Source: a virus
Lineage: Duplodnaviria > Heunggongvirae > Uroviricota > Caudoviricetes
Strand: one strand, 5' to 3'
DNA: 10,201 nt
Virus record (IMG/VR): IMGVR_UViG_2558860904_000026
Coordinates: 1-10,201 of that record
Part shown: piece after piece, positions 1,028 to 10,201 of the stretch
Position numbering within the stretch: the stretch's first letter is position 1
Layout: the number at the start of each line of letters is the position of its first letter
Notes under the pieces: model-generated
Database searches by the model: none
The model's input: the letters and a program-made list of their open reading frames with translations, nothing else
Told to the model about the DNA's origin: nothing
Position numbers and translations under genes: made by a program

Positions 1028-1318
1028 CTCTATCAGTGCTATTAGCAGGGAGAGATATCACCGGAGTTTAATGTGTGATTTTTATTTATCGTCGAATCTG
1101 TATTGTTTATCATTGCTTTTCACAACGCTAACATCTAATAAGATTAGATATTCACTTCGTGAGAGCTTCATGCCTTGAGAGGATCTCAATTTTCTTTTGC
1201 AATGAGACAGGCGCTTCCTGTTGTTATGGTATAGTACCCCGTTATTGAGCCTCCTGAACAGTGATGCTGAATAACATAACCACATGATATATCGATAAAA
1301 TAATCTCTACATTTGAAA

Positions 1319-1441
1319 ATGCACGGTAATTCTGAAATGCAAAAAATCAACCAAACCAGCGCAATGCCTGAAAAAACTGACGTTCACTGGAGTGGTCGGT
1401 TTAGCGTTGCACCAATGCTCGATAGGATGTACCGTTTTTGA
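1319..1441 (+). pseudogene. dusA: Orphan 5' fragment of dusA (tRNA-dihydrouridine synthase A): about 35 native N-terminal codons, then unrelated sequence and a stop
   Basis: Translation MHGNSEMQKINQTSAMPEKTDVHWSGRFSVAPMLD matches the E. coli DusA N-terminus as I recall it (native continues WTDRHCRYF). Here the frame continues RMYRF-stop, so homology ends after codon GAT at 1421-1423. Confidence 0.7.
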
Positions 1442-1531
1442 AAAACAAATAGTTATATACTTTGTGGGAGCCTATTGGGAACCCGGCGTTTTCATTTCAA
1501 GGTGTAATCCATACGCGGCTTAAGAATGAGA

Positions 1532-1537
1532 TATAAT
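1532..1537 (+). promoter_or_regulatory. Candidate -10 hexamer (TATAAT) about 30 nt upstream of the GNAT-like gene
   Basis: Perfect TATAAT at 1532-1537; no convincing -35 at 17-bp spacing (ccatac). Weak call. Confidence 0.25.
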
Positions 1538-1566
1538 GCGACTTTTAGTGTTCCGCTTGAGAGGCC

Positions 1567-2103
1567 ATGATGCTTACCCTGGACGAGATAGGTCAATCAG
1601 TACGTAACAATATCCAGTTGATTATTGATCATGTCGGCTTACCTCTTGCTGTTGGTCCGCTCAGTGATGATGATTACAAGATTCTGTGTGGTGGCTATGG
1701 TGAGCTTGAATGGGACTATGCGTTAAGTACCTATGGCAACTCCAGAGAAAAGTATGAGTTCTGCATAAAACTTGTTCAGCAAGGTCGGGTTCAGGGAATA
1801 CCATCAGGAGCAGCAATTTGTGTTTATGGGGTTGAAGAAAACATCTTTCGTATCCATATGATCGAAAGGTTTTCTAGAGAAGATGAATCTCACCCATTGA
1901 AAGGGCGCATGGTTTTACTCACTCTTATGAGTGCTTTTATATTTTGTAAAGCTGTTGAATGTAAAGTTGTCCACATTGTAGAGCCAGTACCAGAACTGGT
2001 GCAGTATTACGAGTCTTTTGGTTTCCGCATGGAACAGTGCGGTTATGTGATGTCGGCAGTCATTGATGAGCTGCAGGATATCTTTCTTAAATTTGCTCAG
2101 TAG
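1567..2103 (+). CDS. GNAT-fold (N-acetyltransferase-like) protein, 178 aa, first gene inside the element after the dusA junction
   Basis: ORF with SD-like GAGAGG (1559-1564); tandem ATGs at 1567 and 1570, and 1570 has the better spacing. C-terminal half has GNAT-like layout: beta strand ICVYGVEENIFRIHMIERF, then HPLKGRMVLLTLMSAF, then YYESFGF resembling the Y-x-x-GF motif. No canonical Q/R-x-x-G-x-G/A acetyl-CoA motif, so the fold assignment is tentative. Confidence 0.6.
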   Translation: MMLTLDEIGQSVRNNIQLIIDHVGLPLAVGPLSDDDYKILCGGYGELEWDYALSTYGNSREKYEFCIKLVQQGRVQGIPSGAAICVYGVEENIFRIHMIERFSREDESHPLKGRMVLLTLMSAFIFCKAVECKVVHIVEPVPELVQYYESFGFRMEQCGYVMSAVIDELQDIFLKFAQ

Positions 2104-2120
2104 GTATAGACGAGAAGGGT

Positions 2121-2133
2121 CTACAAATTGTAG
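2121..2133. promoter_or_regulatory. Short palindrome ctacaa-a-ttgtag immediately after the GNAT-like gene stop
   Basis: 6-bp perfect inverted repeat around a single central base, embedded in a longer imperfect palindrome (gggtctacaaattgtaggataccc). No T-run follows, so not a classic terminator. Confidence 0.25.
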
Positions 2134-2208
2134 GATACCCGTCCAGATTACCTTAAAGGTACATCTATGGCAGTCGTTTTGTGCTTAAACTACTAAGAAA
2201 CGATGTCA

Positions 2209-2229
2209 CCAATCGACATGATCGATTGG
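2209..2229. promoter_or_regulatory. Operator-like inverted repeat ccaatcga-N5-tcgattgg upstream of the 57-aa gene
   Basis: Perfect 8-bp arms with a 5-bp spacer, about 70 bp upstream of the ATG at 2300; overlaps a TTGGCA hexamer. Confidence 0.3.
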
Positions 2230-2299
2230 CATAAGTTAGCGAAACAAGCTAGCTTTAAAGAAAGGGTTAGAGACGCCTTTACTGTCTCGGGAGTTTTCT

Positions 2300-2473
2300 A
2301 TGAAAGATCAAAAAGCAACCAAGCCACAGGTTAAGTTCGACACAATGAAAGCATTCGCAGGTATGGGTGCTGCTGTTGAAGTTCTGATGAAGGCTGCTCC
2401 TAATGCGTTCACTCACGCTACTGTCTCTGGTAAAGAGCAGCAGGGTAAGCTTCGTCGTCGCAAAGCAGCATGA
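2300..2473 (+). CDS. Small hypothetical protein, 57 aa, basic C-terminus (MKDQKATKPQVKFDTMKAFAGMGAAVEVLMKAAPNAFTHATVSGKEQQGKLRRRKAA)
   Basis: Not in the supplied ORF track (below its size cut-off). Found by hand: SD GGGAG at 2289-2293, 6-nt spacer, ATG at 2300, stop TGA at 2471-2473, then a strong terminator. Confidence 0.5.
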   Translation: MKDQKATKPQVKFDTMKAFAGMGAAVEVLMKAAPNAFTHATVSGKEQQGKLRRRKAA

Positions 2474-2492
2474 TCATAGCTGGTGCTTTTTG

Positions 2493-2518
2493 AAAACCCG
2501 CCTTCAGGCGGGTTTTTT
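2493..2518. terminator. Bidirectional rho-independent terminator between the converging 57-aa gene (+) and PrtN-like gene (-)
   Basis: aaaa-cccgcc-ttca-ggcggg-tttttt: GC-rich 6-bp stem with 4-nt loop, A-run on one side and T-run on the other, so it can terminate both strands. Confidence 0.75.
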
Positions 2519-2520
2519 CT

Positions 2521-2802
2521 TTAGTGATGTTCTTTGTCCTTCTGTTTGACTGTTCTGACCTGTTCCCACTCGATACGTCCTTCTTCTCGCCTTTTGTCTA
2601 TGTATTCCGCAAGATCTTGAATATTGATGCAACGTTTTGCTTTTTGTGATGTGCCGATGCGATATGTTGGAACGGGCAACTTACAAGCGTTTGCTTTTGC
2701 TTCTGCCGTGGCTGGACTCATACCAAAGTACTTTTGGCTAACTGCTGAGAGTTCAATGTTTGGGGTATTGAATTCAGCCATCAGTAAAAACAAGGTGTTC
2801 AT
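2521..2802 (-). CDS. PrtN-like small DNA-binding protein (putative phage transcriptional activator or excisionase-like), about 93 aa
   Basis: Minus-strand ORF; the track start at 2829 is GTG. The ATG at 2802 has SD GGAG with a 6-nt spacer and gives MNTLFLLMAEFNTPNIELSAVSQKYFGMSPATAEAKANACKLPVPTYRIG..., which I recognise as the PrtN/pyocin-activator-like family common in enterobacterial prophage early regions. Recall only. Confidence 0.6.
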   Translation of the reverse strand: MNTLFLLMAEFNTPNIELSAVSQKYFGMSPATAEAKANACKLPVPTYRIGTSQKAKRCINIQDLAEYIDKRREEGRIEWEQVRTVKQKDKEHH

Positions 2803-2838
2803 AATTTTCTCCATCAAAACCGGCTGCACCCGGGAAAA

Positions 2839-3213
2839 TCATAATTCTGTGCTGGTGGCAGGAATTAATTTCTGCCAGATAGCGGAAACATATTTTGCCT
2901 GATGACGGGCATCAGCCAGGGCGTTGTGCCGTTCGCCATCGAAAGGCATGTCCATTTTGGGGTCGAATCCGATGGAACGCCCAAGCGTAACGATCGTGCG
3001 TACATCGTGGTCATTCCAGTACGCCCACGGGCAGATTTGTCCTGCTCGCTCGTAAGCTCCACGTAAAATTACGTTGTCGAAGGTGGCCCCGTTACCCCAG
3101 ACTTTTAAATATTTCGTATTGTCTGCGTGCCGGTTAATGAAATGGTTTAGTTCTGAGAGAGCATCGCTGATCGACAAAGTATCATCAATACTTCCAGCGA
3201 TACCAGCGCGACT
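2839..3213 (-). pseudogene. DnaQ-like (DEDDh) 3'-5' exonuclease, C-terminal part only; N-terminus lost or frameshifted
   Basis: Translation ...WGNGATFDNVILRGAYERAG...HNALADARHQAKYVSAIWQKL carries Exo II-like (FDN) and Exo III-like (H-x-A-x-x-DA) motifs. The frame is open upstream only to a stop at 3214-3216, has no ATG and starts at TTG in the track. No Exo I (D-x-E) segment is present in this frame. Confidence 0.6.
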
Positions 3214-5352: not shown

Positions 5353-6110
5353 AAGGTAGTCGGCCCAGTCTTCAATCCATTCTGGTTGCCGCCAATCGTA
5401 TCGCGTTTATTGACCCGGCAAACGGGAATGAAACGCCGATGTTTGTGGCGCAGGGCAACCAGATATTCATGAACGACGTGTTCCTGAAGCGCCTGACGGC
5501 CCCCACCATTACCAGCGGTGGAAATCCACCGGTATTTTCCCTGACATCAGACGGAAAGCTGACCGCTAAAAATGCGGATATCAGTGGCAGTGTGAATGCG
5601 AACTCCGGGACGCTCAACAACGTCACGGTAAATGAAAACTGTACGATTAAGGGCATGCTGGAGGCGACTCAGGTCAGAGGTGACTTCGTTAAAGCTGTAT
5701 CCAAATCATTTCCGAAACAGGCTGGTACGTGGGGTAACACGGAAACACCAAACGGGACGGTTACAGTCACCATCAGCGATGATCATAACTTTGACCGTCA
5801 AATCATTATTCCGCCCATTATCTTTAACGGAATAGCGTATAGCGATCCGGGAAGTGGTAATAACCCGGGAGGTACAAGATACACGGGTTATGGTTTTGAA
5901 GTTCGCAAAAACGGTGTATTAATCGCATCCAGAGAAACTAAAGGGGCCATTCCCGGTAGCTACAGTGCGGTTATTGATATGCCGAGTGGCAGGGGAAGCG
6001 TCACTCTGGAGTTTAAGGTTTTCCATAAAGGCAATCAGCGGGCAGGTAATATCACCGACTGTACGGTGATTGTGACCAAAAAAGCGGCTTCCGGCATCAG
6101 TATCCGTTGA
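5340..6110 (+). pseudogene. J: C-terminal (receptor-binding) fragment of a lambda J-like central tail fibre / host specificity protein
   Basis: Translation ...[74 protein letters not shown]... matches what I recall of the lambda J C-terminus, and it sits directly upstream of lom-stf-tfa as in lambda. Frame opens only at 5340; lambda J is over 1100 aa, so roughly the first 900 codons are missing. Confidence 0.7.
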
Positions 6111-6829: not shown

Positions 6830-6839
6830 TGGAGTGGGT

Positions 6840-9758
6840 ATGGCAGCAGTACAAATATCAGGCGTGCTGAAAGATGGTGCGGGAAAACCAATACAGAACT
6901 GCACCATTCAACTGAAAGCCAGACGTAACAGCACCACGGTGGTGGTGAACACGGTGGCCTCTGAAAATCCGGATGAGGCAGGGCGTTACAGCATGGACGT
7001 CGAGTATGGTCAGTACAGCGTCATTCTGTTGGTGGAAGGGTTCCCGCCGTCACATGCCGGGACCATCACCGTGTATGAAGATTCTCAACCCGGTACGCTG
7101 AATGATTTTCTTGGTGCCATGACTGAGGATGATGTCCGTCCGGAGGCACTGCGCCGTTTTGAGCTGATGGTGGAAGAGGTGGCGCGTAACGCGTCCGCGG
7201 TGGCACAGAACACGGCAGCCGCGAAGAAGTCAGCCAGCGATGCCAGCACATCAGCCCGTGAGGCGGCAACCCATGCGACTGATGCTGCGGACTCAGCACG
7301 CGCAGCCAGCACGTCAGCCGGACAGGCCGCGTCGTCGGCTCAGTCAGCGTCTTCCAGCGCAGGAACGGCATCAACAAAGGCTACTGAAGCATCAAAAAGT
7401 GCTGCCGCTGCAGAGTCCTCAAAAAGCGCGGCGGCTACCAGTGCCGGTGCGGCGAAAACGTCAGAAACGAATGCGGCAGTGTCACAACAATCAGCCGCCA
7501 CTTCTGCATCCACCGCGACCACGAAAGCGTCAGAAGCTGCCTCCTCAGCCAGGGATGCGTCGGCTTCAAAAGAGGCGGCAAAATCATCAGAAACGAGCGC
7601 AGCCTCGAGCGCCAGTAGTGCAGCCTCCTCGGCAACGGCGGCAGGCAATTCCGCGAAGGCGGCCAAAACGTCTGAGACAAACGCTAAGTCCTCTGAAACG
7701 GCAGCAGAACAGAGTGCCTCCGCAGCAGCAGGCTCAAAAACAGCGGCTGCATTATCTGCCAGTGCCGCGTCAACAAGTGCCGGGCAGGCCTCAGCCAGTG
7801 CCACCGCCGCCGGAAAATCGGCAGAAAGTGCCGCATCGTCTGCTTCAACAGCCACAACGAAGGCTGGCGAAGCCACTGAACAGGCCAGCGCAGCAGCGAG
7901 TTCTGCTTCCGCAGCGAAGACATCCGAAACGAACGCGAAAGCGTCGGAAACCAGCGCAGAATCCTCAAAAACGGCTGCCGCATCGTCAGCCAGTTCGGCG
8001 GCGTCATCGGCATCATCTGCGTCTGCTTCAAAAGATGAGGCGACCAGACAAGCGTCAGCAGCGAAGAGCAGCGCCACGACGGCATCCACGAAGGCGACAG
8101 AGGCAGCTGGTAGTGCGACGGCAGCAGCTCAGAGCAAAAGTACGGCGGAATCTGCAGCAACGCGCGCTGAGACAGCGGCAAAACGGGCAGAGGATATTGC
8201 ATCCGCCGTGGCGCTTGAGGATGCGAGCACGACGAAAAAGGGGATAGTACAGCTCAGCAGTGCGACTAACAGCACTTCCGAGTCACTGGCGGCAACGCCA
8301 AAAGCCGTTAAGGCCGCGTATGAGCTGGCTAACGGGAAATACACCGCACAGGATGCAACGACAGCACAGAAAGGGATAGTTCAGCTTAGCAACGCGACCA
8401 ACAGCACATCTGAAATGCTGGCGGCAACGCCAAAGTCGGTAAAGGCAGCCTATGACCTTGCTAACGGGAAATATACTGCTCAGGACGCTACGACAGCACA
8501 AAAAGGAATTGTCCAGCTCAGTAGTGCAACCAACAGCGCATCTGAAACGCTTGCCGCGACACCGAAAGCAGTGAAAGCAGCTAATGATAATGCGAATGGT
8601 CGGGTACCTTCTGCCCGTAAGGTGAATGGTAAGGCGCTTTCATCGGATATAACACTGACGCCGAAAGATATTGGTACGCTTAACTCAACAACAATGTCAT
8701 TCAGCGGTGGTGCTGGTTGGTTCAAATTAGCAACGGTAACCATGCCACAGGCGAGTTCTGTTGTTTCAATTACGTTGATTGGTGGCGCGGGATTTAACGT
8801 GGGGTCACCTCAACAGGCAGGTATATCTGAACTTGTTTTGCGTGCAGGTAATGGTAATCCGAAGGGGATTACTGGTGCTTTATGGCAGCGCACATCGACA
8901 GGGTTTACAAATTTTGCCTGGGTCAATACATCTGGTGATACTTACGATATTTACGTTGCAATCGGAAATTATGCGACTGGTGTAAATATTCAATGGGATT
9001 ATACCAGTAATGCCAGCGTGACGATTCATACGTCACCAGCATATTCTGCTAATAAGCCGGAAGGGTTAACGGACGGTACAGTTTATTCACTCTATACGCC
9101 ATCAGAGCAGTTTTATCCGCCTGGCGCACCAATCCCGTGGCCATCAGATACCGTTCCGTCTGGCTATGCCCTGATGCAGGGGCAGACTTTTGACAAATCT
9201 GCATACCCGAAACTTGCAGCCGCTTATCCGTCAGGCGTGATCCCTGATATGCGTGGCTGGACGATTAAGGGCAAACCTGCCAGTGGTCGGGCCGTATTGT
9301 CTCAGGAACAGGACGGCATTAAATCGCACACCCACAGCGCCAGCGCATCCAGTACGGATTTGGGGACGAAAACCACATCGTCGTTTGATTACGGCACTAA
9401 ATCCACGAATAACACCGGGGCGCACACGCACAGTGTGAGCGGTACAGCCGCAAGTGCCGGAAACCATACTCATAGTGTCACAGGCGCATCAGCAGTCAGC
9501 CAGTGGTCACAAAATGGGTCAGTACATAAGGTAGTGTCTGCGGCCAGTGTGAATACAAGTGCTGCAGGAGCGCACACTCATAGTGTCAGCGGCACAGCTG
9601 CATCTGCAGGTGCTCACGCACATACTGTCGGTATTGGTGCTCATACGCACTCTGTTGCGATTGGCTCACATGGACACACCATCACCGTTAACGCTGCGGG
9701 TAACGCGGAAAACACTGTCAAAAACATCGCATTTAACTACATTGTGAGGCTTGCATAA
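6840..9758 (+). CDS. stf: Side tail fibre protein Stf, 972 aa, with lambda-like N-terminus, long Ala/Ser/Thr-rich low-complexity region, three tandem 44-aa repeats and His-rich C-terminal tip
   Basis: ATG at 6840 with SD GGAG (6831-6834); the track start at 6834 is GTG with no spacer. N-terminus [39 protein letters not shown]... matches the lambda Stf N-terminus as recalled. C-terminal repeats [15 protein letters not shown] with H-x-H motifs are typical of phage fibre tips. Stop TAA at 9756-9758. Confidence 0.9.
8236..8631 (+). repeat. Three tandem 132-bp (44-codon) repeats inside stf
   Basis: Units begin at about 8241, 8373 and 8505 (gggatagtac / gggatagttc / ggaattgtcc). They encode [45 protein letters not shown] and two variants; the third copy diverges at its end. 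Confidence 0.8.
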
Positions 9759-10201
9759 TGGCATTCAGAATGAGTGAACAACCACGGACCATAAAAATTT
9801 ATAATCTGCTGACCGGAACTAATGAATTTATTGGTGAAGGTGACGCATATATTCCGCCTCATACAGGTCTGCCAGCAAACAGTACCTATATTGCACCGCC
9901 AGATATTCCGGCTGGCTTCGTGGCTGTTTTCAACAGTGATGAGTCATCGTGGCATCTCGTTGAAGATCATCGGGGTAAAACGGTTTATGACGTGGCTTCC
10001 GGCGACGCGTTATTTATTTCTGAACTCGGCTCATTACCGGAAAATGTTACCTGGTTATCGCCGGAAGGGGAGTTTCAGAAGTGGAACGGCACAGCCTGGG
10101 TGAAAGATGCAGAAGCAGAAAAACTGTTCCGGATCCGGGAGGCGGAAGAAACAAAAAACAGCCTGATGCAGGTAGCCAGTGAGCATATTGCGCCACTTCA
10201 G
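9758..10201 (+). CDS. tfa: Tail fibre assembly chaperone Tfa, N-terminal 148 codons; gene runs off the window end
   Basis: ATG at 9758-9760 overlaps the stf stop (TAATG); SD GAGG at 9746-9749. Translation [78 protein letters not shown]... matches lambda Tfa as recalled. No stop within the window, so it is absent from the ORF track. Confidence 0.9.

Follow-up and report, generated by a model that had tools for sequence, protein, structure and literature searches.

The stretch of DNA analysed here, which we call the window, is 10,201 nucleotides long (IMG/VR record IMGVR_UViG_2558860904_000026) and is a piece of Escherichia coli chromosome. It starts with a DUF2713 gene in the yjbL/yjbM region (positions 1 to 957), passes through a remnant of the 5' end of dusA, and then enters a lambdoid prophage. 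Our subject is a pair of genes, coding for proteins of 177 and 57 amino acids, that lies just inside this prophage. An original prediction, made from the letters of the window alone, had described the pair as a GNAT-like gene with a small basic partner, arranged in the manner of a moron, with a promoter, operator-like palindromes and a bidirectional terminator of its own. We find that the region from 1530 to 2517 is a self-contained and horizontally mobile accessory cassette, or moron, of temperate phages; that its larger product has a very divergent GNAT fold; and that the palindromes are hairpins of a structured RNA spacer, formed by the sense strand between the two genes. The coordinates of all these features are collected in Table 1.

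Two genes and their products

The larger open reading frame (ORF) can be read from position 1567 or from position 1570, and ends at 2103. The true start is at 1570, because all homologues begin with MLTL or MLSL and the Salmonella gene has a single ATG: the GNAT-like ORF originally predicted at about 178 codons is thus a real gene, with a corrected start and a product of 177 amino acids. The gene is under purifying selection, the ratio of nonsynonymous to synonymous substitution (dN/dS) being about 0.04 against its relatives.

The 177-amino-acid protein falls into PHROG 4350, a family of unknown function. Pfam, NCBIfam and PADLOC hold nothing for it, the first two even at E ≤ 1, and a profile search through 1.84 billion representative proteins yields just 80 relatives at E ≤ 0.001. 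Among 55 relatives compared with the GNAT family PF00583 of Pfam, a single one reaches E 0.006, and none gives a convincing signal. The best profile match in PDB is nourseothricin acetyltransferase, below threshold at E 0.069. The searches of Pfam, NCBIfam and PDB thus produced no match to any characterised acetyltransferase family, and in particular none to a housekeeping enzyme, which would have spoken against the original prediction. The fold is that of a GNAT, the structural elements following the core order beta1-alpha1-alpha2-beta2-beta3-beta4-alpha3-beta5-alpha4-beta6, and the Foldseek neighbours of the protein are generic GNATs that include the toxin-peptide complexes 6gtr and 7ak9.

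At the junction of beta4 and alpha3, where the canonical loop of motif A reads Q/R-x-x-G-x-G/A, the protein has P109-L-K-G112-R-M114 and keeps the central glycine alone, in agreement with the earlier remark that the usual acetyl-CoA motif is not evident. The family carries a signature of its own at this place, H-P-L-x-G-R, ahead of helix 3. This signature, as HPLxG(R), is conserved family-wide along with W48, H96, E99 and the motif Y147-x3-GF of helix 4, all of them located at positions that serve cofactor binding or catalysis in GNATs. Residue Y147, in helix alpha4 (motif B), is conserved in at least 90% of the 55 relatives, down to about 20% identity, and is followed by (F)GF; its position suggests that it may act as the general acid. 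The catalytic core is apparently intact, and the enzyme apparently active. The protein is acidic, with a net charge of -10 and an isoelectric point (pI) of 4.8, and its core relatives range from -9 to -16.

The smaller gene codes for a protein of 57 amino acids that is basic (net charge +8, pI 10.5) and largely disordered. Its family, PHROG 2741, is also one of unknown function, and the absence of a recognisable motif, already remarked in the original prediction, extends to Pfam, NCBIfam, PADLOC and PDB, none of which holds a relative; PDB sequence matches to gp41 and to a DARPin were rejected as spurious. The AlphaFold2 model, with a mean confidence (pLDDT) of 62, contains two helices, at residues 15-18 and 22-32, and no strand. 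The gene is under purifying selection, with dN/dS between 0.03 and 0.3. Even the most divergent partners retain FDT and, in the helix region, G-x-A-x3-L-M-x-A-A-P, together with a basic tail and an Ala-Ala at the C-terminus. This Ala-Ala is found in most homologues, including those of Shewanella, phage Eeyore and Erwinia; the Photorhabdus protein ends in AVA. A C-terminal Ala-Ala is a hallmark of ssrA-type ClpXP degrons, and by analogy the end of the small protein may be degron-like.

The two products are of opposite charge wherever they were compared, the enzyme ranging from -9 to -16 and the partner from +2 to +9. They evolve at different rates: the small protein is 89-98% conserved where the GNAT protein is 66-72% conserved, and synonymous divergence between the same pairs of genomes is far lower in the small gene than in the gene next to it. 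Between E. coli and Salmonella, the proportion of synonymous differences is 0.08 in the small gene and 0.65 in the GNAT gene, and in other pairs 0.23-0.43 against saturation. The origin of this low divergence lies either in recent recombination or in a constraint at the nucleotide level, imposed for example by RNA structure or by an antisense RNA.

Expression signals and the RNA between the genes

The cassette is closed by an intrinsic terminator that it shares with the convergent excisionase gene. Its GC-rich stem, AAAACCCGCCT/AGGCGGGTTTT, is perfect over 11 base pairs (2493-2516) and is placed between a run of A and a run of T, so that the bidirectional terminator of the original prediction is well founded. 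Among the other contexts that were aligned, a terminator hairpin again follows the small gene, with the Photorhabdus locus lacking a clear equivalent.

The promoter claimed for the pair could not be established. A scan for the sigma-70 consensus upstream of the 177-amino-acid gene calls no promoter; what is conserved across unrelated contexts is a -10-like element TAnAAT about 35 nucleotides before the start (TATAAT at 1532-1537 in the window), with no -35 element, and a ribosome-binding site GAGAGG at 1559-1564. Moreover, the promoter of dusA lies upstream. No convincing internal sigma-70 promoter for the small gene was found in the main clade. In a subfamily whose proteins are 181 and 53 amino acids long, the spacers of phage Eeyore (fetched locus L005, about 5580-5590) and of Erwinia (L109, about 5583-5591) contain, as judged by eye, an extended -10-like element TGTTATAGT. 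It lies about 200 nucleotides upstream of the small gene and is confined to this subfamily, which hints that the small gene may there be transcribed from a promoter of its own, with a long leader.

The spacer between the two genes is conserved in Escherichia, Salmonella, Citrobacter, Enterobacter, Pseudescherichia and Franconibacter, and its predicted helices are supported by several measures. Over 20 distinct spacer sequences, 86.5% of the cells are paired, compared to 24-44% when the partners are slid; when the spacers are re-aligned with a covariance model, the proportion is 89%. The helices contain 21 to 25 cells with double changes, 25 of them over the 20 sequences, a number that none of 500 shuffles reaches. 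The spacer of the window folds with a z-score of -3.3 on the plus strand with respect to shuffled sequences, and a covariance model, R1, matches 2195-2305 on the plus strand only, once per locus. This model finds no match in the more divergent cassettes, nor in the Panacea-type loci described below, whose spacers differ.

The original prediction had noted two inverted repeats, at 2121-2133 and 2209-2229, and had called them operator-like. Both repeats exist, and a repressor of the small gene could in principle bind them as DNA operators: they are palindromic, they lie upstream of that gene, and the arms of the second are well conserved in sequence. The manner in which they vary makes this very unlikely. 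The changes in helices C, whose core is 2209-2229, and E are mostly one-sided changes to G.U or U.G, which pair in the RNA of the plus strand only and leave C.A mismatches on the other strand; this speaks for RNA structure on the coding strand and against DNA operators. Hairpin C is kept across genera. One clade exchanges the sequences of the arms and yet keeps their complementarity, the neighbouring helix D has compensatory changes at three pairs, and the loops vary freely. In addition, the cassette encodes no DNA-binding protein. The repeat at 2121-2133 is palindromic in the window, and elsewhere only its 3' half (TTGTAGGAT) is conserved in sequence. The palindromes are thus sense-strand hairpins of the structured spacer.

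In many minimum-free-energy folds of the spacers, but not in all, the Shine-Dalgarno (SD) sequence and the AUG of the small gene are paired, and the pairing partner differs: it is either the sequence beside the GNAT stop codon or the TTGTAGGAT motif. These folds are suggestive of translational control or coupling, and too inconsistent to support a claim.

Other identities for the spacer were considered and discarded. An ORF of 43 codons at 2203-2334 is non-coding, since the indels in the spacers of relatives are not multiples of three; ARAGORN found no tRNA-like element; and no Rfam family matches 2104-2299, even at E ≤ 1. A small RNA of 193 nucleotides, sRNA-17, was reported within the mEp460-like prophage of E. 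coli K1 RS218 (PMC7719688); its primers and sequence are absent from the window, and it lies elsewhere.

Table 1. Features of the cassette and of its immediate neighbours, in window coordinates
Feature	Position	Strand	Basis or match
Promoter-proximal 5' remnant of host dusA (attL side)	1318-1422	+	Near-identity to dusA of K-12, region upstream included
Phage-side att arm and 5' untranslated region of the cassette	1423-1569	+	Identical to mEp460 between int and gp23
Gene for 177-amino-acid acidic protein, divergent GNAT fold	1570-2103	+	PHROG 4350; identical to mEp460 gp23
Structured inter-cistronic RNA spacer, 196 nucleotides	2104-2299	+	RNAalifold, pair counts, covariance model
TAGAC/GTCTA stem	2107-2123	+	
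Palindrome of the window	2121-2133	+	
Conserved motif TTGTAGGAT	2128-2136	+	Invariant
Hairpin B	2149-2161	+	
Hairpin C	2207-2231 (core 2209-2229)	+	
Hairpin D	2233-2255	+	
Hairpin E	2270-2288	+	
SD sequence GGGAG of the small gene	2289-2293	+	
Gene for 57-amino-acid basic, largely disordered protein	2300-2473	+	PHROG 2741, E 8e-36; identical to mEp460 gp24
Intrinsic bidirectional terminator	2492-2517		11-bp perfect stem
PrtN-family excisionase-like gene, first leftward early gene	2521-2829	-	PF11112, E 4e-23; PHROG 1300 (excisionase), E 8e-40
Truncated 3'-5' exonuclease gene	2839-3177	-	

Linkage of the pair and its insertion sites

If the two genes form a unit, they should be found together in other genomes. 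Loci around homologues were fetched from genomes, viral contigs and assemblies and searched with tblastn; the survey covers more than 100 loci, about 23 of them distinct, from E. coli, Salmonella, Citrobacter, Enterobacter, Franconibacter, Edwardsiella, Photorhabdus, Erwinia and Shewanella. Every homologue of the GNAT-like gene between 100% and 36% identity has a small gene on the same strand, 93 to 280 nucleotides downstream (196 in the window), so that the pair does co-occur elsewhere, in every related locus examined; among these homologues the GNAT gene was never found alone. At the far end of this range, the Shewanella gene (36% identity) has an unannotated partner of 56 amino acids, while in phage Eeyore (42%) and Erwinia persicina (39%) the partner is 53 amino acids long and has diverged along with the GNAT protein: the subfamily of 181-amino-acid GNAT proteins is always paired with this variant. 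The small gene is unannotated or uncalled in phage Eeyore (L005, 5795-5956), in Shewanella (L028, 4701-4871) and in loci L013 and L014 (6721-6894); database annotation therefore under-reports the pairing.

More distant GNAT-like relatives, at 30% identity or less, follow zot in filamentous prophages of Aeromonas and the lysis genes in a lambdoid prophage, and also occur in an array of cassettes in Vibrio, with ParE/Phd alongside; the small ORFs downstream of these relatives are not recognisably homologous to the 57-amino-acid protein.

The places where the pair is inserted are varied. In E. coli and Salmonella it lies at the dusA end of the prophage, between int/attP and xis. In Citrobacter and phage Eeyore it directly follows the Q antiterminator, in the slot that stx has in Shiga-toxin phages, and in Edwardsiella it occupies an equivalent slot before the lysis genes. 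In Photorhabdus it lies inside the tail gene cluster of a myovirus. In Erwinia persicina (L109, 5001-5964) the 181/53 pair, with its own terminator, stands alone, flanked by a gene for an outer-membrane protein and by an intact dusA, with neither a prophage nor an obvious duplication of att, and may be a domesticated remnant. The cassette thus moves as one unit between unrelated phages.

In the window, the site of insertion is the 5' end of dusA. Identity with the K-12 gene ends at about 1422, after two mismatches that lie upstream of the ORF; the arm of attP begins at 1423, and the truncated dusA ORF, 40 codons long, reads on to a stop at 1441. The pair is therefore, as had been proposed, the first inside the element, and opposite in strand to the early genes, since the excisionase and exonuclease genes that follow are both on the minus strand. 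The structure of the site was obtained from a four-way alignment of the window (attL), the phage mEp460 (attP), the restored dusA of an O157 strain (attR) and K-12 (attB). In mEp460, a copy of the 5' end of dusA, about 86% identical, adjoins int, and the alignment places the crossover at the end of this copy; attP and the dusA mimic occupy 5655-6006 of fetched locus L004, the counterpart of 1318-1441 in the window. The gene order of the free phage is dinI-int on the minus strand, attP, gp23 and gp24 on the plus strand, and xis-exo on the minus strand, and the products of gp23 and gp24 are identical to the two proteins of the window. The integrase gene lies outside the window; in the O157 strain PV15-279 it is about 38 kb away, beside the rebuilt dusA.

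Insertion in the 5' end of dusA, a replacement 5' end supplied by the element, and an integrase beside the restored gene are the traits of the elements with DusA-associated integrases (Farrugia et al. 2015, PMC4482086), and the host element has all three. Membership of that family characterises the vehicle and says nothing of the cargo; phages with other sites of integration carry the cassette too. Whether the phage is free or integrated, the cassette lies just downstream of a dusA-type promoter and of the truncated ORF; after integration, it is the displaced promoter of the host that aims directly at it, and a scan detected no terminator between this promoter or the 5' remnant and the cassette.

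The GNAT gene is present in 358 of 5,426 complete E. coli genomes (about 6.6%), including many O157:H7 strains and other E. coli that make Shiga toxin (STEC), and the whole region in 356 of these 358; the small gene is present in 562 of the 5,426. The segment 1250-2600 is 100% identical in many O157:H7 genomes, where RefSeq annotates a partial tRNA-dihydrouridine synthase, hypothetical proteins of 177 and 57 amino acids, and a PrtN-family protein.

The same slot can hold another cargo. In phages SKA5 and Lys8385Vzw, and in the ST131 and enterotoxigenic E. coli (ETEC) H10407 loci, a Panacea-domain gene and a gene of 128 or 139 codons replace the GNAT gene and the spacer, directly upstream of the retained 57-amino-acid gene (L015, 2973-3961; L117 and L118, 2483-3471); homology to the window begins about 12 base pairs before the ATG of the small gene. 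In ETEC H10407, an extra gene of the CoiA family lies between the small gene and xis. The Panacea domain, or PanA, was named in Pfam for a SocA-like antitoxin. These modules occupy exactly the slot of the cassette in sister phages, although they share no homology with its proteins, neither of which matches the Panacea domain in Pfam. The dusA-end slot next to att is thus a hotspot of variable cargo, and its two alternative cargoes can be compared directly.

Some observations concern other parts of the window. At 1-957, a single DUF2713 ORF of 318 codons stands where K-12 has separate yjbL (84 amino acids) and yjbM (235 amino acids). A tail-fibre ORF of 974 codons (6834-9758) contains an Ala/Ser-rich tract of low complexity at about 7250-8250, with a GC content near 0.60 and a strong AT skew, and three tandem repeats of about 44 amino acids (…KGIVQLS.ATNS.SE.LAATPK.VKAA…). 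The last positions, 10101-10201, partially match the Rfam small RNA IS009 (105 bits, model positions 1-101 of 199), the match being cut by the end of the window.

Known systems and possible function

Phage morons are autonomous promoter-gene-terminator insertions, defined for HK97 and HK022; lom and bor of lambda, and stx downstream of Q, are examples. Like them, the cassette is self-terminated and is inserted at differing places between conserved phage modules, downstream of Q or near att, in at least five different contexts; the moron-like layout of the original prediction stands in this respect. Unlike them, it joins two protein genes through a conserved structured RNA, and at the dusA site it can use a displaced promoter of the host.

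The toxin-antitoxin systems that pair a GNAT toxin with a ribbon-helix-helix (RHH) antitoxin, TacA-TacT, AtaR-AtaT, KacA-KacT and ItaR-ItaT, also combine a protein of GNAT fold, about 175 amino acids long, with a small partner on a mobile element; structures of such toxins are among the fold matches of the cassette protein, and its disordered partner, with its short helix, is reminiscent of the C-terminal segments by which AtaR and TacA bind their toxins. Could the cassette be a canonical type II member of this group, blocking translation by acetylating aminoacyl-tRNA? Size and fold would suit, and still the idea is extremely improbable. The partner has no RHH or other DNA-binding domain, its model and database searches agreeing on this point. 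It is encoded downstream and not upstream, beyond the structured spacer of about 190 nucleotides, and the 147 nucleotides from the att junction to the GNAT start encode nothing, as expected from the earlier observation that no RHH antitoxin lies there. In sequence, the enzyme resembles neither those toxins nor any GNAT family of Pfam; its acetyl-CoA motif is non-canonical, and its charge and pI are those of an acidic protein, not of one with a basic toxin surface. Three features that define the GNAT/RHH family are thus absent, and the cassette is not a member of it. The small protein does not resemble the hydrophobic membrane peptide of a type I system either: besides its charge, it has no uninterrupted hydrophobic span, and its longest helix has 11 residues. 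The low synonymous divergence of its gene is compatible with the antisense RNA of such a system, and is not specific to it.

A toxin or defence role is nonetheless plausible, and we conjecture, tentatively and as the likeliest reading, that the cassette pairs an effector with its neutraliser, in the manner of toxin-antitoxin, addiction or abortive-infection systems. Three groups of observations lead to this conjecture: the strict linkage of the genes, in which the GNAT gene is never an orphan while the small gene sometimes is; the complement that a disordered, basic and degron-like partner makes to an acidic enzyme; and the company the genes keep, with a Panacea-domain gene and its partner in the same slot and distant relatives in cassette arrays. 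In such a pair, the acyltransferase would be the component that acts and may do harm. By its short helix and opposite charge, the small protein would bind the enzyme and hold it inactive, and its C-terminal tag would keep the small protein short-lived. The folded spacer would tune the translation of the small protein, or couple it to translation of the enzyme, and no enzyme would then be made without its neutraliser. In a lysogen, the cassette could be expressed from the prophage by the displaced dusA promoter.

Several observations weigh against this conjecture. None of the PADLOC models matches. The gene for the putative toxin leads, 93 to 280 nucleotides ahead of its partner, where the two genes of most type II pairs overlap or adjoin each other; and the small protein lacks a DNA-binding domain. 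The known GNAT toxins that acetylate tRNA present basic tRNA-binding surfaces, and this GNAT protein is acidic. N-terminal acetyltransferases rank equal to toxins among the structural neighbours, and with P-L-K-G-R-M in the place of the usual motif, cofactor binding is putative. Finally, the low synonymous divergence of the small gene could stem from recombination and not from function, and its retention in Panacea-type phages may only mark a recombination breakpoint.

Two other explanations accept the cassette and read it differently. The GNAT protein might acetylate the Lys-rich small protein, at its N-terminus or on its lysines, or use it for targeting, the modified small protein acting as a host effector in lysogenic conversion. 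Strict co-occurrence and opposite charges would follow naturally, as would the strong conservation of the small protein. However, more than 200 E. coli genomes, and phages as well, keep an intact small gene without having this GNAT gene, which is unexpected if the small protein has to be modified; the order of the structural neighbours favours neither side, and we consider an enzyme with its substrate or adaptor unlikely. It is similarly doubtful that the genes are two independent morons that are merely co-transcribed, with the GNAT protein modifying a host protein or a small molecule, such as a polyamine, an antibiotic or a metabolite, and the small protein having no part in it. Most of the GNAT superfamily are metabolic or resistance enzymes, the spacer is long, and recombination can part the small gene from the GNAT gene. 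Yet order, orientation and pairing are kept from 100% to 36% identity, in at least five unrelated contexts and two bacterial orders, and the partner co-diverges with the enzyme, as its 53-amino-acid variant illustrates.

A stronger form of the effector-neutraliser conjecture, to which we give rather less credence, is that the cassette represents a new class of two-protein toxin-antitoxin or defence systems: an acidic GNAT that targets a protein and not a tRNA, a degron-tagged mini-protein without a DNA-binding domain whose synthesis is controlled or coupled by a structured RNA of about 190 nucleotides (a new motif), and an orphan small gene that provides anti-addiction immunity to Panacea-type phages. 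In the literature that could be searched, including recent papers on the discovery of defence systems, neither protein is characterised. Both are still annotated as hypothetical; the cassette sits in O157:H7 and other STEC genomes and in an isolated phage, mEp460.

Whatever the function of the cassette, its spacer is a conserved structured RNA that is missing from Rfam. If the pair is indeed an effector with its neutraliser, the acetyltransferase toxins would extend to a form with no DNA-binding antitoxin, a reversed gene order and an RNA-structured spacer, whose target would probably be something other than tRNA; and for pathogenic E. coli the cassette would be a concrete candidate for addiction to a prophage, or for exclusion of phages by one.

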